Assembly (NCBI RefSeq): GCF_054482595.1
Contig: NZ_CM137008.1
DNA: 64,000 nucleotides
Strand: one strand, 5' to 3'
Part shown: positions 12,928-55,278 of the stretch, piece by piece
How the letters are laid out: each line of letters begins with the position of its first letter
Numbering within the stretch: position 1 is the first letter of the stretch
The notes under the pieces: model-generated
The model's input: only the letters and a program-made list of their open reading frames with translations
Told to the model about the DNA's origin: nothing
Databases searched by the model: none
Program-made: the position numbers and the translations under genes

Positions 12928-14468
12928 TGTCGCGCAATCTTCGTCATTGGGTGATTTCGCTGTTTATTGTGCTGGCCTGGGGAACCGGCTGGCTGATGCT
13001 GTGGACGCTCAGCTTTTATCTGACCAATAACGGTCAACAGGCGGTGTTGTTTCTCCCGCAGGGAGTTTATCTCGCCCTTGTTATTTTGCTCTCTCGCCGC
13101 TACTGGCCTGCGTTGGTGCTCCCCCCTTTGCTGATGATGTTCTGGCTCCATAGTGAACAGCTATTGAACGGTTATCTCATGCTGGCAACGCCGGTTATTA
13201 GCCTGTTTCCTGTCCTCCTTGCGCAAAACTTCTGGCACCGTTTTCCACTTTACTGGCAGCGTCTGACGTTGCTGTTAGCCACTGTCACGGCAGCTTCATT
13301 GTTGAATACCGCCCTGCTCTCCCCTTTTATGTCAGGCCCAATAATGCTGCCGGGTTTGACCTCATTTACCGGCGGCGTATTACTGACGCCGTTTGTCTAT
13401 CTTATCTTTGAGTTTCTGCGCCAGCAGCATCGCTACCAGCTCCTGGGACTCGATACGCATAATCCCCCCTTGCGTACCTCTTTAATCATCTGGTGTAGCC
13501 TGTTTTTTATTATTGGTATCGGCACTCAGATGGTGCTGTCACCTGAAATTGAACGTCTGCTGTTGATCGTGGTCTTTTTGCCCAATGTGGTGATGGCGTG
13601 GAAATTTGGCTGGCAAGGTGGCGTACTCTCCGGGCTTTTGGGCAGCATGATGATCACCATCGCCCGCCAGATTGGCGTGGGCTTTAGTAACCTGGTGGAG
13701 CTGGAGATTTTCCTCGCGACCCAGGCCTTGCTGGGAATTGGCCTGGGCATTGCCATCAGTCGCCAGCAACATCTGGCGCTAAACCTGCACCATTACCGAC
13801 AACGGCTGGAGGCCGAGCTGGCAGCGCGGCGGGCATTGGCGGAAAAGCTGATCCACACCGAGGAGGACACGCGAAAAAACCTGGCGCGAGAGCTGCACGA
13901 CGAAATCGGTCAGAACATCACCGCCATTCAGATCCAGTCGCAACTGGTGAAGCGGGCGCGTGATCCGGCGCAAATTCAATCCGCAGCCAGCCAAATCAAT
14001 GAGCTCGCCCGCCGCATTCATCTCTCCACCCGCCAATTGCTGCGCCAGTTGCGGCCTCCCGCGCTTGATGAACTGACATTTCGCGAAGCGTTGCTGCATC
14101 TGATTAATGAATTTGCCTTTAGTGAACGCGGCATTCATTGCCAGTTTGCCTATCAACTGAACTCCACACCAGAAAACGAAACGGTGCGCTTTACCTTGTA
14201 TCGGTTATTGCAGGAGTTGCTCAATAACATCTGTAAACACGCCGAAGCCAGCGAAGTGACGATTATCCTGCGCCAGCAGGGAGAGGTATTGCATCTGGAA
14301 GTCAGCGACAACGGTGTGGGGATCGCCAGCGGGAAAATGGCCGGATTTGGCATTCAGGGGATGCGTGAGCGCGTCAGCGCCCTGGGCGGCGACTTAACGC
14401 TCGAAAAACAGCACGGCACGCGGGTAATTGTTAACTTGCCCACATTTTTGCAACAAATCGCCGGATAA
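12927..14468 (+). CDS. Sensor histidine kinase, UhpB-like (polytopic membrane N-terminus, HisKA_3/HATPase C-terminus)
   Basis: 513 aa; hydrophobic N-terminal half; motifs ARELHDEIGQNITAI and GFGIQGMRERVSALGG as in UhpB. Confidence 0.85.
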   Translation: MSRNLRHWVISLFIVLAWGTGWLMLWTLSFYLTNNGQQAVLFLPQGVYLALVILLSRRYWPALVLPPLLMMFWLHSEQLLNGYLMLATPVISLFPVLLAQNFWHRFPLYWQRLTLLLATVTAASLLNTALLSPFMSGPIMLPGLTSFTGGVLLTPFVYLIFEFLRQQHRYQLLGLDTHNPPLRTSLIIWCSLFFIIGIGTQMVLSPEIERLLLIVVFLPNVVMAWKFGWQGGVLSGLLGSMMITIARQIGVGFSNLVELEIFLATQALLGIGLGIAISRQQHLALNLHHYRQRLEAELAARRALAEKLIHTEEDTRKNLARELHDEIGQNITAIQIQSQLVKRARDPAQIQSAASQINELARRIHLSTRQLLRQLRPPALDELTFREALLHLINEFAFSERGIHCQFAYQLNSTPENETVRFTLYRLLQELLNNICKHAEASEVTIILRQQGEVLHLEVSDNGVGIASGKMAGFGIQGMRERVSALGGDLTLEKQHGTRVIVNLPTFLQQIAG

Positions 14469-24844: not shown

Positions 24845-25320
<476 letters not shown>

Positions 25321-25350
25321 ATACAAAATGCACGTTCTCGGCAGTCAATA

Positions 25351-31621: not shown

Positions 31622-31762
31622 TTCAGTACCTCACGACTCGGACAAAATGCCGTTGCGCGCACAGTACGGCGCAACTTATTTTGTTAAAAACATGTAAATG
31701 ATTTTTTATTGTGCGCTCAGTATAGGAAGGGTGTTTTCGGCTACAATCAAAACATGCCCGAA

Positions 31763-31779
31763 TGTGCACCAGGTGCACA
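31763..31779. promoter_or_regulatory. Candidate MhpR operator: palindrome TGTGCACC-A-GGTGCACA in the mhpA-mhpR divergent region
   Basis: Perfect 8-bp inverted repeat around a central A; recalled as resembling the published MhpR site. Confidence 0.5.
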
Positions 31780-31811
31780 ACGTTGTTTTAACTATAGAAA
31801 TGTCAATTAAT

Positions 31812-32645
31812 ATGCAGAACAATGAGCAGACGGAATACAAAACCGTGCGCGGCTTAACCCGCGGTCTAATGTTATTAAATATGTTAAATAAACTTGACGG
31901 CGGTGCCAGCGTCGGGCTGCTGGCGGAACTCAGCGGCCTGCATCGCACCACTGTGCGGCGACTGCTGGAGACGCTGCAGGAAGAGGGATATGTCCGGCGT
32001 AGTCCCTCCGATGATAGTTTTCGTCTGACCATCAAAGTGCGGCAATTAAGCGAAGGATTTCGTGACGAACAGTGGATTTCTGCACTGGCGGCCCCACTGC
32101 TGGGCGATCTGTTGCGCGAAGTGGTATGGCCGACAGATGTGTCCACGCTGGATGTTGATGCAATGGTGGTACGCGAAACCACCCACCGTTTCAGCCGCTT
32201 ATCCTTTCACCGGGCAATGGTCGGGCGACGTTTGCCGCTTCTGAAAACCGCCTCGGGCCTGACCTGGCTGGCCTTTTGCCCGGAACAAGAACGCAAGGAA
32301 TTAATCGAAATGTTAGCCTCCCGCCCCGGTGATGACTATCAACTGGCACGAGAACCGTTAAAGCTGCAAGCCATTCTGGCGCGCGCGCGCAAAGAGGGTT
32401 ACGGACAGAACTACCGCGGCTGGGATCAGGAGGAGAAGATCGCCTCTATCGCCGTACCGCTGCGCAGTGAACAACGGGTGATTGGCTGTTTGAATCTGGT
32501 GTATATGGCGAGCGCAATGACCATCGAACAGGCAGCGGAAAAGCATCTTCCGGCACTACAACGGGTAGCAAAACAGATCGAAGAAGGGGTTGAATCGCAG
32601 GCTATTCTGGTGGCCGGACGGCGAAGCGGCGTGCATTTACGCTAG
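31812..32645 (+). CDS. mhpR: MhpR, IclR-family activator of the mhp operon
   Basis: 277 aa from the internal start MQNNEQTEYKTVRGL. Confidence 0.92.
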   Translation: MQNNEQTEYKTVRGLTRGLMLLNMLNKLDGGASVGLLAELSGLHRTTVRRLLETLQEEGYVRRSPSDDSFRLTIKVRQLSEGFRDEQWISALAAPLLGDLLREVVWPTDVSTLDVDAMVVRETTHRFSRLSFHRAMVGRRLPLLKTASGLTWLAFCPEQERKELIEMLASRPGDDYQLAREPLKLQAILARARKEGYGQNYRGWDQEEKIASIAVPLRSEQRVIGCLNLVYMASAMTIEQAAEKHLPALQRVAKQIEEGVESQAILVAGRRSGVHLR

Positions 32646-35641: not shown

Positions 35642-35662
35642 AATGTGAGTCAGCTCACTCAT
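35641..35662 (+). promoter_or_regulatory. CRP (CAP) binding site of the lac promoter
   Basis: TGTGAGTCAGCTCACT core; centre differs from the recalled K-12 sequence (C in place of T). Confidence 0.85.
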
Positions 35663-40170: not shown

Positions 40171-40195
40171 AACATATCAGGACGGAATGATCGCA

Positions 40196-40807
40196 ATGAA
40201 CATGCCAATGACCGAAAGAATAAAAGCAGGCAAGCTATTTACCGATATGTGCGAAGGCTTACCGGAAAAAAGACTTCGTGGGAAAACGTTAATGTATGAG
40301 TTTAATCACTCGCATCCATCAGAAGTTGAAAAAAGGGAAAGCCTGCTTAAAGAAATGTTTGCCACGGTAGGGGAAAACGCCTGGATAGAACCACCTGTCT
40401 ATTTCTCTTACGGTTCCAACATCCATATAGGCCGCAATTTTTATGCAAATTTCAATTTAACCATTGTCGACGACTACACGGTCACGATCGGTGATAACGT
40501 ATTGATTGCACCCAATGTTACTCTTTCCGTTACGGGACACCCTGTACACCATGAATTGAGAAAAAACGGTGAGATGTACTCTTTTCCGATAACGATTGGC
40601 AATAACGTCTGGATCGGAAGTCATGTGGTTATTAATCCAGGCGTCACCATCGGGGATAATTCTGTTATTGGCGCGGGTAGTGTCGTCATAAAAGACATTC
40701 CACCAAACGTCGTGGCTGCTGGCGTTCCTTGCCGGGTTATTCGCGAAATAAACGACCGGGATAAGCAATATTATTTCAGAGATTACAAAGTTGAATCGTC
40801 AGTTTAA
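40196..40807 (+). CDS. lacA: LacA, galactoside O-acetyltransferase
   Basis: 203 aa from the internal start MNMPMTERIKAGKLF; hexapeptide-repeat acetyltransferase. Confidence 0.95.
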   Translation: MNMPMTERIKAGKLFTDMCEGLPEKRLRGKTLMYEFNHSHPSEVEKRESLLKEMFATVGENAWIEPPVYFSYGSNIHIGRNFYANFNLTIVDDYTVTIGDNVLIAPNVTLSVTGHPVHHELRKNGEMYSFPITIGNNVWIGSHVVINPGVTIGDNSVIGAGSVVIKDIPPNVVAAGVPCRVIREINDRDKQYYFRDYKVESSV

Positions 40808-51200: not shown

Positions 51201-51233
51201 TGGGTACGTTTCCTTATTGTTATTCGTAGAGGT

Positions 51234-52403: not shown

Positions 52404-52439
52404 ATTGTCCTCGTCATTGTTATCATTTGTAGGGTCGAG

Positions 52440-52550
52440 ATTGTTGTCGGATGCGACGCCATGCGTCTTATTCGACCTACAGTTCAGTACACCCGTAGGC
52501 CTGATAAGCCGCGTCAGCGGCGCATCAGGCATCGGTTGTCGAATACAACC
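52440..52550. repeat. REP element pair between prpB and prpC
   Basis: GTCGGATGCGACGCCATGCGTCTTATTCGACCTAC ... GCCTGATAAGCCGCGTCAGCGGCGCATCAGGC; approximate bounds. Confidence 0.8.
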
Positions 52551-52562
52551 AACGGGCGTTTT

Positions 52563-53453
52563 TTATTTCACCTGGCTACGGGCAAACAGGTCGTCGAGCT
52601 TCGCTTCGTACTGGTAGTAGTTGATGCTTTCGTACAGCTCGTTGCGGGTCTGCATGGTGTCGATGACACTTTTCTGCGTGCCTTCCTGACGCAGGACGTT
52701 GTAGACATGCTCAGCGGCGCGGTTCATGGCGCGGAACGCTGAAAGCGGGTACAGCGCCATTGCGACATGGGCGCTGCGTAATTCGTCGATGGTAAACAGC
52801 GGCGTTGCGCCAAATTCGGTAATATTGGCGAGGATTGGCACCTGCACCGCATCGGCAAACTGGCGGTACATGGCGAGTTCGGTAATCGCCTCCGGGAACA
52901 ACATCTCGGCACCCGCTTCAACATAGGCCTGCGCACGCTCGATCGCCGCATCCAGCCCTTCTACCGCCAGCGCATCGGTGCGCGCCATGATCACAAAATC
53001 AGGATCGGTTTTCGCATCCACCGCCGCGCGGATCCGATCCACCATCTCCTCTTTCGAGACGATCGCTTTGTTCGGGCGATGACCACAGCGTTTTGCACCA
53101 ACCTGATCTTCAATATGCAATCCCGCCGCACCGGCTTTAATCATCGATTTCACCGTACGCGCAACGTTAAAAGCAGAAGAACCAAAACCGATATCCGCAT
53201 CCACCAGCAGCGGCAGCGAACAAACGTCGGTGATACGGCGAATATCTGTCAACACGTCATCAAGAGTAGAAATACCGAGATCGGGCAGCCCCAGCGACCC
53301 TGCCGCCACGCCACCGCCGGAGAGATAAATTGCCTGATATCCGGCACGCTGCGCCAACAGCGCATGGTTGGCGTTGATGGTGCCAACAATCTGCAATGGA
53401 TTTTCTTTAGTCAGTGCAGCGCGAAACGCTTTACCTGGGGAGTGTAGAGACAT
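52563..53453 (-). CDS. prpB: PrpB, 2-methylisocitrate lyase
   Basis: 296-aa ORF. Confidence 0.95.
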
Positions 53454-53498
53454 AGCCCATCCTTTGTTATCAACTTGTTATTTGCGTTGATAAACACA

Positions 53499-53515
53499 AA
53501 GCAAGGGGTGTGCCA
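53499..53515 (-). promoter_or_regulatory. Sigma-54 (-24/-12) promoter of prpBCDE
   Basis: Minus strand reads TGGCACACCCCTTGCTT (GG-N10-GC) about 45 bp upstream of the prpB ATG; fits the known PrpR/sigma-54 control of prp. Confidence 0.8.
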
Positions 53516-53691
53516 CAATTGCCTTAATAAAATTAAATCTTTAATTTCAATTCGTTAGAGATAAAGTCATGAACTAATCCGCAAATATGCGTTTCAGTTA
53601 ACGTTTCAGGCAATGTTTCACCGCGTTTCATTGCAACAATTATGAAACAAGACTAAACCCAATATTCGGTTTCTTAACTTTGCGGTGCGCT

Positions 53692-55278
53692 ATGGCACAT
53701 CCACCACGGCTTAATGACGACAAACCGGTTATCTGGACGGTATCTGTAACGCGCCTGTTCGAGCTGTTTCGCGATATCAGCCTCGAGTTTGATCACCTGG
53801 CGAACATTACCCCTATTCAGCTTGGCTTTGAAAAAGCAGTGACCTACATCCGCAAGAAACTGGCAAACGAACGCTGTGACGCCATCATCGCTGCTGGCTC
53901 TAACGGCGCGTACCTGAAAAGCCGCCTGTCAGTGCCAGTTATTTTGATTAAACCGAGCGGCTACGATGTGTTACAGGCACTGGCAAAAGCCGGAAAGCTC
54001 ACCTCTTCTATCGGCGTTGTCACTTATCAGGAAACTATTCCGGCACTGGTGGCGTTTCAAAAAACCTTTAATTTGCGCCTCGATCAACGTAGCTACATTA
54101 CCGAAGAAGACGCACGCGGGCAGATTAACGAGCTAAAAGCTAACGGCACCGAAGCGGTGGTCGGCGCGGGGCTGATTACCGATCTGGCAGAAGAAGTCGG
54201 AATGACCGGAATTTTTATCTATTCCGCCGCCACCGTGCGCCAGGCGTTCAGCGATGCGCTGGATATGACGCGCATGTCGTTACGCCATAACACTCACGAT
54301 GCTACCCGTAACGCCCTGCGTACTCGTTACGTGCTGGGCGATATGCTCGGTCAATCACCACCGATGGAACAAGTACGGCAGACTATTTTGCTGTATGCCC
54401 GCTCCAGTGCAGCGGTGTTGATTGAGGGGGAAACGGGGACGGGCAAAGAGCTGGCGGCCCAGGCGATTCATCGGGAATATTTTGCCCGCCACGATGCGCG
54501 ACAGGGCAAAAAGTCGCATCCGTTTGTTGCCGTCAACTGCGGGGCGATAGCCGAATCGCTGCTGGAATCGGAGCTGTTTGGCTATGAGGAAGGGGCGTTT
54601 ACCGGCTCGCGACGCGGAGGTCGCGCCGGGCTGTTCGAAATTGCCCACGGCGGTACGCTGTTTCTGGATGAGATTGGCGAAATGCCGCTACCTTTGCAGA
54701 CTCGCCTGTTACGGGTGCTGGAAGAAAAAGAGGTTACTCGCGTCGGCGGGCATCAGCCTGTTCCGGTGGATGTGCGGGTCATTAGCGCCACTCACTGCAA
54801 TCTGGAAGAAGATATGCGGCAAGGGCAGTTTCGCCGTGATCTGTTTTATCGGCTGAGTATTTTGCGTCTGCAATTGCCACCACTGCGCGAGCGGGTGGCA
54901 GATATTCTGCCACTGGCGGAAAGTTTTTTGAAAGTGTCTCTGGCGGCGCTCTCCGCCCCATTTTCTGCTGCATTACGCCAGGGGTTACAGGCAAGTGAAA
55001 CTGTGCTGCTGCGCTACGACTGGCCGGGCAATATTCGTGAACTGCGCAATATGATGGAGCGACTGGCGCTGTTTTTAAGTGTGGAACCGACGCCGGATTT
55101 AACGCCGCAGTTTTTGCAGCTGCTACTGCCGGAACTGGCGCGCGAGTCGGCGAAAATTCCCGCTCCACGCTTGCTGACACCACAACAGGCACTGGAGAAA
55201 TTTAAAGGCGATAAAACAGCAGCGGCGAATTATTTAGGCATAAGCCGGACGACGTTCTGGCGGCGGCTGAAAAACTGA
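53692..55278 (+). CDS. prpR: PrpR, sigma-54-dependent activator of the prp operon
   Basis: 528 aa from [15 protein letters not shown]; AAA+ sigma-54 interaction domain ([13 protein letters not shown]) and C-terminal HTH. Confidence 0.93.

Follow-up and report, generated by a model that had tools for sequence, protein, structure and literature searches.

The prpR-prpB intergenic region

Within the 64-kb stretch of Escherichia coli chromosome analyzed here, referred to as the window, positions 53454 to 53691 are exactly the 238-bp spacer between prpB on the minus strand and prpR on the plus strand, as judged from the open reading frame list and RefSeq annotation. The queried stretch of window DNA is 100% identical to that of E. 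coli strain AR_0085, and the RefSeq annotation of this identical strain, together with Pfam domains, confirms the prpR and prpBCDE gene calls that an earlier note had made from the DNA letters. All features discussed below are collected in Table 1. The PrpR protein contains the Pfam domains PrpR_N (residues 36 to 196), Sigma54_activat (residues 219 to 393; E = 1e-65), AAA_lid_14, and HTH_8 (residues 498 to 527), with a Walker A motif (GETGTGK) at residue 246 and a GAFTGS loop at residue 301. The activator encoded next to prpB has the AAA+ sigma-54 interaction domain and the GAFTGA loop (here GAFTGS) that are expected of a cognate enhancer-binding protein.

The prpR-prpB region was found in 5,218 of 5,426 complete E. 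coli genomes, leaving about 208 genomes without it, and 9 matches fall on records labeled as plasmids. In some E. coli lineages, prpR is decaying, as seen in many clusters of 423- to 457-amino-acid proteins that have no HTH domain. The prpR gene of strain SCU-484 carries an internal stop, and strain RM8082 matches just the prpB-side 80 bases of a 438-base query. Further down the operon, the 159-bp prpB-prpC spacer (52404-52562, minus strand) contains the REP-like palindromic sequence GCCTGATGCGCCGCTGACGCGGCTTATCAGGCCTAC.

Table 1. Features of the prpR-prpB region and related sites in the window. Positions are those of the window; a dot in the strand column marks features given without a strand.
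Feature	Position	Strand	Sequence or layout	Basis or remarks
prpB CDS, 2-methylisocitrate lyase, first gene of prpBCDE	52563..53453	-		ORF; RefSeq annotation of AR_0085; Pfam PEP_mutase/ICL
prpB Shine-Dalgarno sequence	53460..53464	-	AAGGA	Sequence; GGA invariant in alignment A1
ArcA-type direct repeat in the prpB leader, +9 to +26	53464..53481	+	TTGTTATCAACTTGTTAT (TGTTA-N6-TGTTA, 11-bp spacing)	16.28 bits
Predicted prpBCDE transcription start	53489	-	C; 36-nt leader, 53489-53454	Rule applied to motif center 53508
Sigma-54 promoter of prpBCDE	53500..53516	-	GTGGCACACCCCTTGCT	GG at 53514-53513 (-25/-24); GC at 53502-53501 (-13/-12)
AT-rich spacer with candidate IHF cores	53531..53557	.		Each one mismatch to WATCAANNNNTTR
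Candidate IHF core	53531-53543	+	AATTAAATCTTTA	One mismatch to WATCAANNNNTTR
Candidate IHF core	53534-53546	-	AATTAAAGATTTA	One mismatch to WATCAANNNNTTR
Candidate IHF core, center at -62	53545-53557	+	TTTCAATTCGTTA	One mismatch to WATCAANNNNTTR
PrpR enhancer (UAS)	53591..53648	.	Five half-sites, -159 to -107 from the predicted start	Hexamer count; alignments
Possible weak prpR sigma-70 promoter	53631..53659	+	TTGCAA (53631-53636), 17 nt, TAAACC (53654-53659)	Read by eye; speculative
Second ArcA-matrix match	53633..53650	-	TTGTTTCATAATTGTTGC	16.31 bits; 42-59 nt upstream of the prpR ATG
prpR CDS, sigma-54 enhancer-binding activator, divergent from prpB	53692..55278	+		ORF; RefSeq annotation of AR_0085; Pfam
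mhpA ArcA box, known	31681-31698	+		19.98 bits; in the training set

A sigma-54 promoter upstream of prpB

The minus strand of the spacer reads ...ATTGTGGCACACCCCTTGCTTTGTG..., in which TGGCAC (53515-53510) is followed by ACCCC and TTGCT (53504-53500). The earlier note had reported this TGGCAC-N5-TTGCT element on the prpB strand at about 45 bp upstream of the prpB ATG, and it is present at that place; between the last T of TTGCT and the A of the prpB ATG (53453) we counted 46 nt, so the distance is correct as well. The GG and GC dinucleotides lie ten bases apart within TGGCACACCCCTTGCT (53515-53500), and the pattern TGGCACNNNNNTTGCW (TGGCAC-N5-TTGCW) has one exact match in the 64-kb window, which is the prpB promoter.

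Both strands of the window were scanned with a leave-one-out sigma-54 matrix; its training set was the 41 intergenic ChIP-seq motifs that Bonocora et al. 2015 (PMC4591121) list in their Table 1 besides the prpB one. The prpB promoter scores 14.95 bits, the third-best match in the window. Because this score ranks 29th among 42 known sites and thus falls below their median, the site deserves the earlier note's description as "textbook" only in its GG/GC core, not in its C-rich spacer or its flanks. The same note had proposed a matrix scan as the check on the promoter, and the outcome is divided: the score lies inside the range spanned by the 41 bound sites (8.6 to 21.7 bits), but simulated sequence of 64 kb yields about 1.15 matches of equal or better score, with at least one in 65% of simulated windows. 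The matrix score is therefore not decisive by itself, and we rejected it as stand-alone proof of a promoter. For one strand of the 238-bp spacer, the chance expectation is about 0.002 (by arithmetic from the 64-kb simulation). The prpB site is significant only once its position is counted, and position and conservation carry the case.

Other sigma-54 matrix matches of 14.0 to 15.3 bits in the window are located at 40192-40208 (minus strand) and at 13881-13897, 13773-13789, and 61280-61296 (all plus strand). The matches at 40192-40208 and 13881-13897 score like the prpB promoter. None of the four is among the high-stringency K-12 sigma-54 ChIP sites, and they are probably chance or low-occupancy sites. 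At 25316-25332 (plus strand), the window contains TGGGCATACAAAATGCA, which scores 12.1 bits with the matrix and is identical to the K-12 sigma-54 ChIP-seq site OA01, an "intergenic antisense" site in K-12 with no obvious downstream gene (PMC4591121).

Occupancy of the prpB site has been documented on the same sequence. The identical 17-mer in K-12 is the ChIP-seq peak OS01, for which the fold above threshold (FAT) is 17 and the predicted transcription start lies 36 nt before prpB; Table 1 of that study gives its EcoCyc status as "predicted" rather than "confirmed" (PMC4591121). Genomic SELEX (gSELEX) with the sigma-54 holoenzyme also produced a peak in the prpR/prpB spacer (PMC8743547). The homologous Salmonella site, TGGCATAGCCTTTGCTTT, is positive by ChIP-chip, and supplying a constitutive activator raises the Salmonella prp operon 45-fold (PMC3844500). 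Transcription of prp in Salmonella is rpoN dependent according to Palacios and Escalante-Semerena 2000, as cited in PMC4987338 and PMC3844500. We placed the predicted start 19 nt downstream of the motif center, a rule (PMC4591121) that reproduces the published 36-nt distance to prpB.

Orthologous loci were compared from K-12, E. albertii, four Citrobacter, Kluyvera, two Salmonella-like contigs (in full), two Photorhabdus, four betaproteobacteria, and Xanthomonas. The Salmonella-like loci are metagenome contigs found by the exact published LT2 promoter 18-mer rather than a named LT2 record. Fifteen orthologous sequences have a divergent prpR-prpB pair, and in every one of them the best matrix match of the spacer lies on the prpB strand. 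In 14 of these it is found 39 to 58 nt before the prpB ATG; in the Xanthomonas massiliensis locus, where the start of prpB is uncertain, it is found 103 nt before the ATG. The position of the promoter is thus conserved across three proteobacterial classes, and in the alignments, the -24/-12 core is invariant in Escherichia, Citrobacter, and Kluyvera. Within Escherichia, variation is limited to the AT-rich stretch between enhancer and promoter, with no change in the enhancer, the -24/-12 core, or the leader.

With about one match of this strength expected by chance per 64 kb, the TGGCAC-N5-TTGCT match could in principle be coincidental, with prpBCDE being read from an unrecognized sigma-70 promoter. 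Such a coincidence would have to accommodate ChIP-seq and gSELEX occupancy on the identical sequence, a site position kept across three proteobacterial classes, and an adjacent gene for a sigma-54-type activator. Moreover, consensus scans of 53300-53850 for sigma-70 promoters and terminators returned nothing at the thresholds used. We consider a coincidental match extremely improbable and already effectively refuted, and we refer to the site as the sigma-54 promoter PprpB below.

A PrpR enhancer composed of half-site arrays

Read in the prpB sense, the enhancer begins with GTTTCA (53648-53643) and continues with four copies of TGAAAC (53630-53625, 53620-53615, 53608-53603, and 53596-53591), a layout of GTTTCA-N12-TGAAAC followed by three TGAAAC at 10-, 12-, and 12-bp steps. 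Five GTTTCA/TGAAAC hexamers in 58 bp compare with 0.042 expected (P about 1e-9), and elsewhere in the window, a 66-bp stretch contains one at most. All five half-sites fall at -107 to -159, within the roughly 80 to 200 bp from the promoter where an upstream activating sequence (UAS) is sought, and the half-site blocks are invariant in both of our alignments (A1 and A2).

The published Salmonella PrpR consensus is the contiguous palindrome CGTTTCATGAAACG (PMC4987338), which is absent from the window, from K-12, and from E. albertii. The palindrome is found in C. koseri and C. amalonaticus and, exactly, in the Salmonella-like loci; C. werkmanii and FP75 have it with G for the first C, and in Kluyvera it is degenerate in the left half (GTTTTGTGAAACG). 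At the place of the palindrome, Escherichia has CATTGCCTGAAACG plus an extra TGAAAC 12 bp upstream, and it has TGAAAC where the others in the alignments have TGACAC. A small inversion as the origin of the Escherichia variant was considered by eye and rejected, as it did not reproduce the ancestral sequence. The proximal half-site is located at -107 in Escherichia, at -117 or -118 in Kluyvera and most Citrobacter, and at -132 in C. koseri and the Salmonella-like loci; the enhancer of E. coli and E. albertii is 11 to 25 bp closer to the promoter than those of the Citrobacter, Kluyvera, and Salmonella-like loci.

Comparable half-site clusters occur in most PrpR loci examined. Upstream of the promoter, three of the four betaproteobacterial loci have arrays that combine two half-sites in forward orientation with two to four in reverse; the Xanthomonas locus (L015) has no exact GTTTCA/TGAAAC half-site, and a Burkholderiales locus (L016) has a single exact hexamer. 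Because three of the four betaproteobacterial loci also use them, arrays of half-sites look like a general rule for PrpR enhancers.

IHF, CRP, and sigma-70 candidates in the spacer

The earlier note had expected PrpR sites further upstream in the interval and had suggested looking there for IHF sites as well. The five half-sites described above bear out the first part, but for IHF we found only weak one-mismatch candidates (Table 1). By chance, 0.57 one-mismatch cores would be expected in the region between enhancer and promoter. In the core centered at -62, differences among E. coli strains fall only in its NNNN positions. The same scan found no IHF core with one or fewer mismatches in the Salmonella-like spacer, though IHF is genetically required for prpBCDE expression in Salmonella (as cited in PMC4987338).

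No CRP site (TGTGA-N6-TCACA) with two or fewer mismatches is present in the region, and the best matches have 3 mismatches in 10 and are not conserved. Genomic SELEX with CRP did not recover prpR or prpB, though RegulonDB lists them (PMC3105977); CRP regulation of prp has nevertheless been reported in the literature. Elsewhere in the window, the sole near-consensus CRP cores (one mismatch each, plus strand) are at 35644-35659 (TGTGAGTCAGCTCACT), presumably the CRP site of the lac promoter; at 55760-55775 (TGTGATCTCTCTCGCA), in the yahO-yahN spacer adjoining prpR; and at 63935-63950. For prpR itself, the hexamers of the candidate sigma-70 promoter in Table 1 are conserved in alignment A1, and the Salmonella-like loci have TTGCAA-17-TAAAAC.

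A conserved ArcA-type repeat in the prpB leader

Besides the enhancer and the promoter, alignment A1 contains a fourth invariant block in the prpB leader. We scanned the window with an ArcA matrix built from the 115 published, ChIP-derived boxes in Table S3 of Park et al. 2013. The top three matches of the window are the known mhpA box, the direct repeat in the prpB leader, which abuts the Shine-Dalgarno sequence of prpB, and a second match at 53633-53650. Both matches in the prp spacer have the make-up of an ArcA box, that is, two TGTTA-like repeats with an 11-bp center-to-center distance and a score of about 15 bits or more. A match as strong as the one in the leader is expected 0.17 times per 64 kb, and 9 of 2,000 shuffles of the spacer reach its score. 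The second match overlaps the distal PrpR half-site and the 12-nt "spacer" TAATTGTTGCAA, an invariant block in A1, and it is ambiguous because PrpR half-site (GTTTCA) arrays cross-score with the ArcA matrix, reaching 13.9 bits in a betaproteobacterium. At the mhp locus, the mhpR-mhpA spacer (31681-31898) holds the known mhpA ArcA box TTGTTAAAAACATGTAAA and weaker repeats at 31692, 31777, 31870, and 31881, which suggests a multirepeat ArcA site there.

The same leader position scores 12.4 to 19.2 bits in Citrobacter, Kluyvera, the Salmonella-like loci, and Photorhabdus, and the repeat is kept at this position in five Enterobacterales genera. In the Salmonella-like leader, both TGTTA cores are found at the same distance from the ATG and score 18 to 19 bits, and the inverted repeat and the IHF core discussed below are lost, so that these loci tell the three readings of the block (direct repeat, RNA hairpin, and IHF core) apart. 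Between the E. coli and Salmonella-like leaders, 0 of 10 repeat-core positions differ, versus 4 of 8 others (Fisher p = 0.023). The Photorhabdus leader has TGTTA copies 22 bp apart with a weaker copy between them. Among the betaproteobacterial and Xanthomonas loci, none has a leader match in its top three with the ArcA matrix, except Rugamonas at 6.1 bits. These groups are not known to have ArcA.

The leader block (53464-53493) can be read as an operator for ArcA-P, which on the TGTTA repeats would block formation of the sigma-54 open complex or early elongation, so that the operon stays off without a respiratory electron acceptor even when propionate and PrpR are present. We regard this as a serious possibility that falls a little short of probable. 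The matrix score and the rank beside the known mhpA box, the retention of the position in five genera and of the TGTTA copies in Photorhabdus, the unchanged repeat cores in the Salmonella-like leader, and the near-absence of leader matches from the betaproteobacterial and Xanthomonas loci all argue for such an operator. Published data also count in its favor. An ArcA site scoring at least 15 bits was predicted upstream of prpR, without a ChIP peak, by Park et al. 2013, in whose data deletion of arcA raised prpR 2.9-fold. The PrpR regulon is also listed among those elevated in an fnr arcA double mutant, and in anaerobic Salmonella, propionate induces prpR, whereas prpB and prpC also need nitrate (Shelton et al.; PMC8800556). 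However, prp shows no peak in the ArcA ChIP tables examined from Park 2013 and Federowicz 2014, a need to make 2-methylcitrate could equally account for the nitrate effect, and in E. coli the third repeat is, at 9 bp, out of phase. The published ChIP was carried out with glucose. In addition, ATAACAA, which is the same set of words on the RNA strand, also stands before the ribosome sites of prpC and prpD, hinting at a role in translation. The leader could accordingly act at the RNA level, either through the inverted repeat TTATCAAC/GTTGATAA as a protective 5' hairpin or through its C/A-rich AUAACAA words, which might enhance translation or be recognized by an RNA-binding regulator. The inverted repeat is a perfect 8-bp one and would fold at -6.6 kcal/mol (z = -2.6) if transcription began at 53493, but from the predicted start at 53489, the fold is no better than those of shuffles (-2.4 kcal/mol; z = -0.28). 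The Salmonella-like leader, without the inverted repeat, likewise does not fold; the two arms show no covariation, since neither varies wherever they are present; and an Rfam scan of 53200-53900 with E up to 1 matched no family. We rejected the leader hairpin as not significant from the predicted start and absent in Salmonella. The ATAACAA words lie just upstream of the ribosome sites of prpB (two copies, 53470-53481), prpC (52417-52423), and prpD (51217-51223), accounting for 4 of the 12 minus-strand copies in 64 kb, so that a translation-level role may still be considered in E. coli; the prpC and prpD copies, however, are not conserved outside Escherichia, Salmonella and most Citrobacter included. 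Taken as a whole, a function of the leader RNA appears unlikely.

The plus strand of the same block also contains TATCAACTTGTTA (53468-53480), a perfect WATCAANNNNTTR core of the kind that 2.6% of spacer shuffles have, and the block might on that account be the IHF site needed for prpBCDE expression. The core is conserved in Escherichia, Citrobacter, and Kluyvera, and the genetic requirement for IHF in Salmonella noted above would fit. It lies, however, downstream of the start and not between enhancer and promoter, where a bend could help, and it is absent from the Salmonella-like and Photorhabdus leaders, in which the direct repeats persist. Given where it lies and that Salmonella and Photorhabdus have lost it, we rejected the leader core as a functional IHF site, and an IHF role of this block is decidedly improbable.

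Returning to ArcA, binding at the leader repeat is what we infer from its sequence and conservation. The leader may be a conserved ArcA-P operator downstream of the sigma-54 start, possibly paired with the match at 53633-53650 over the prpR promoter, in which case the redox state of the quinone pool would directly gate propionate catabolism. This wider proposal is tentative, slightly more so than the operator by itself. The leader repeat is a modest, testable lead and not a discovery.

Compared with the E. coli ArcA boxes of Park et al. 2013, the leader shares the two TGTTA-type repeats 11 bp apart, and its score is near the median of the 115 boxes; the closest listed boxes are those of fumC (ttgttatcaaatggtaaa), nupC (ttgttatcgaagtgttac), and gadE (ttgttatcagcttgtaaa). 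Unlike the listed boxes, prp has no reported ChIP peak in that study, only the predicted site upstream of prpR, and here ArcA would act on a sigma-54 promoter, downstream of its start, instead of on a sigma-70 promoter.

Relation to known prp control regions

The 17-nt promoter, the half-site array, and the leader are all identical to those of PprpB of E. coli K-12 (OS01), the basis of the pPro vectors. Across the 238-bp spacer, three positions differ from K-12, in the AT-rich spacer and between -12 and the start. There is no difference of substance, and this is the same element in another E. coli strain. Since it consists of the PprpB sigma-54 promoter and the associated PrpR enhancer, the element is already known, and the earlier note was right to call the promoter expected for prp and not novel.

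The Salmonella enterica LT2 region (Palacios and Escalante-Semerena 2000, 2004) shares the divergent layout, a sigma-54 promoter with a predicted start 37 nt before prpB, the distal GTTTCA-N12-TGAAAC, the proximal TGAAACG-N5-TGA(C/A)ACG, and the ArcA-type repeat at the same distance from the ATG. The two regions differ in the enhancer, which in Salmonella has the contiguous palindrome CGTTTCATGAAACG where Escherichia has CATTGCCTGAAACG and the extra TGAAAC, and which lies 25 bp further from the promoter than that of Escherichia. The promoter spacer is AGCCT in Salmonella versus ACCCC here, and the leader sequence differs outside the TGTTA cores.

Proposed mechanism and implications

We are highly confident that 53454-53691 serves as the divergent control region for the propionate (2-methylcitrate cycle) genes of E. 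coli, with the sigma-54 promoter PprpB and a PrpR enhancer. In the model that we propose from the sequence elements observed here, with their statistics and conservation, sigma-54 RNA polymerase would sit as a closed complex on GTGGCACACCCCTTGCT (53516-53500, minus strand), and it could begin transcribing prpBCDE, at about 53489, only once PrpR, hydrolyzing ATP, drives the formation of an open complex. PrpR, activated by 2-methylcitrate, would bind the GTTTCA/TGAAAC half-site array 107 to 159 bp upstream, and IHF presumably bends the intervening AT-rich DNA so that PrpR reaches the polymerase. Transcription of prpR would run in the opposite direction, from a weak promoter that adjoins or overlaps the distal half-sites. 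The 2-methylcitrate signal and the dependence on prpR are taken from the literature on Salmonella, and the start site, the position of IHF, the prpR promoter, and ArcA-P repression at the leader repeat enter the model as predictions.

These results anchor the annotation of the locus as an intact, canonical prpR-PprpB module, the same one that propionate-inducible pPro vectors and propionate biosensors employ. The Escherichia enhancer differs from the footprinted Salmonella one. Expression from pPro vectors based on Salmonella is reported to be about threefold higher than from those based on E. coli, and we conjecture that the enhancer difference contributes to this gap. The conserved ArcA-type repeat in the leader offers a testable reason for the poor anaerobic performance of PprpB, and it could also explain the nitrate requirement in Salmonella gut colonization work. 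If true, ArcA gating would explain why Salmonella needs both nitrate and propionate to express prpB and prpC anaerobically.
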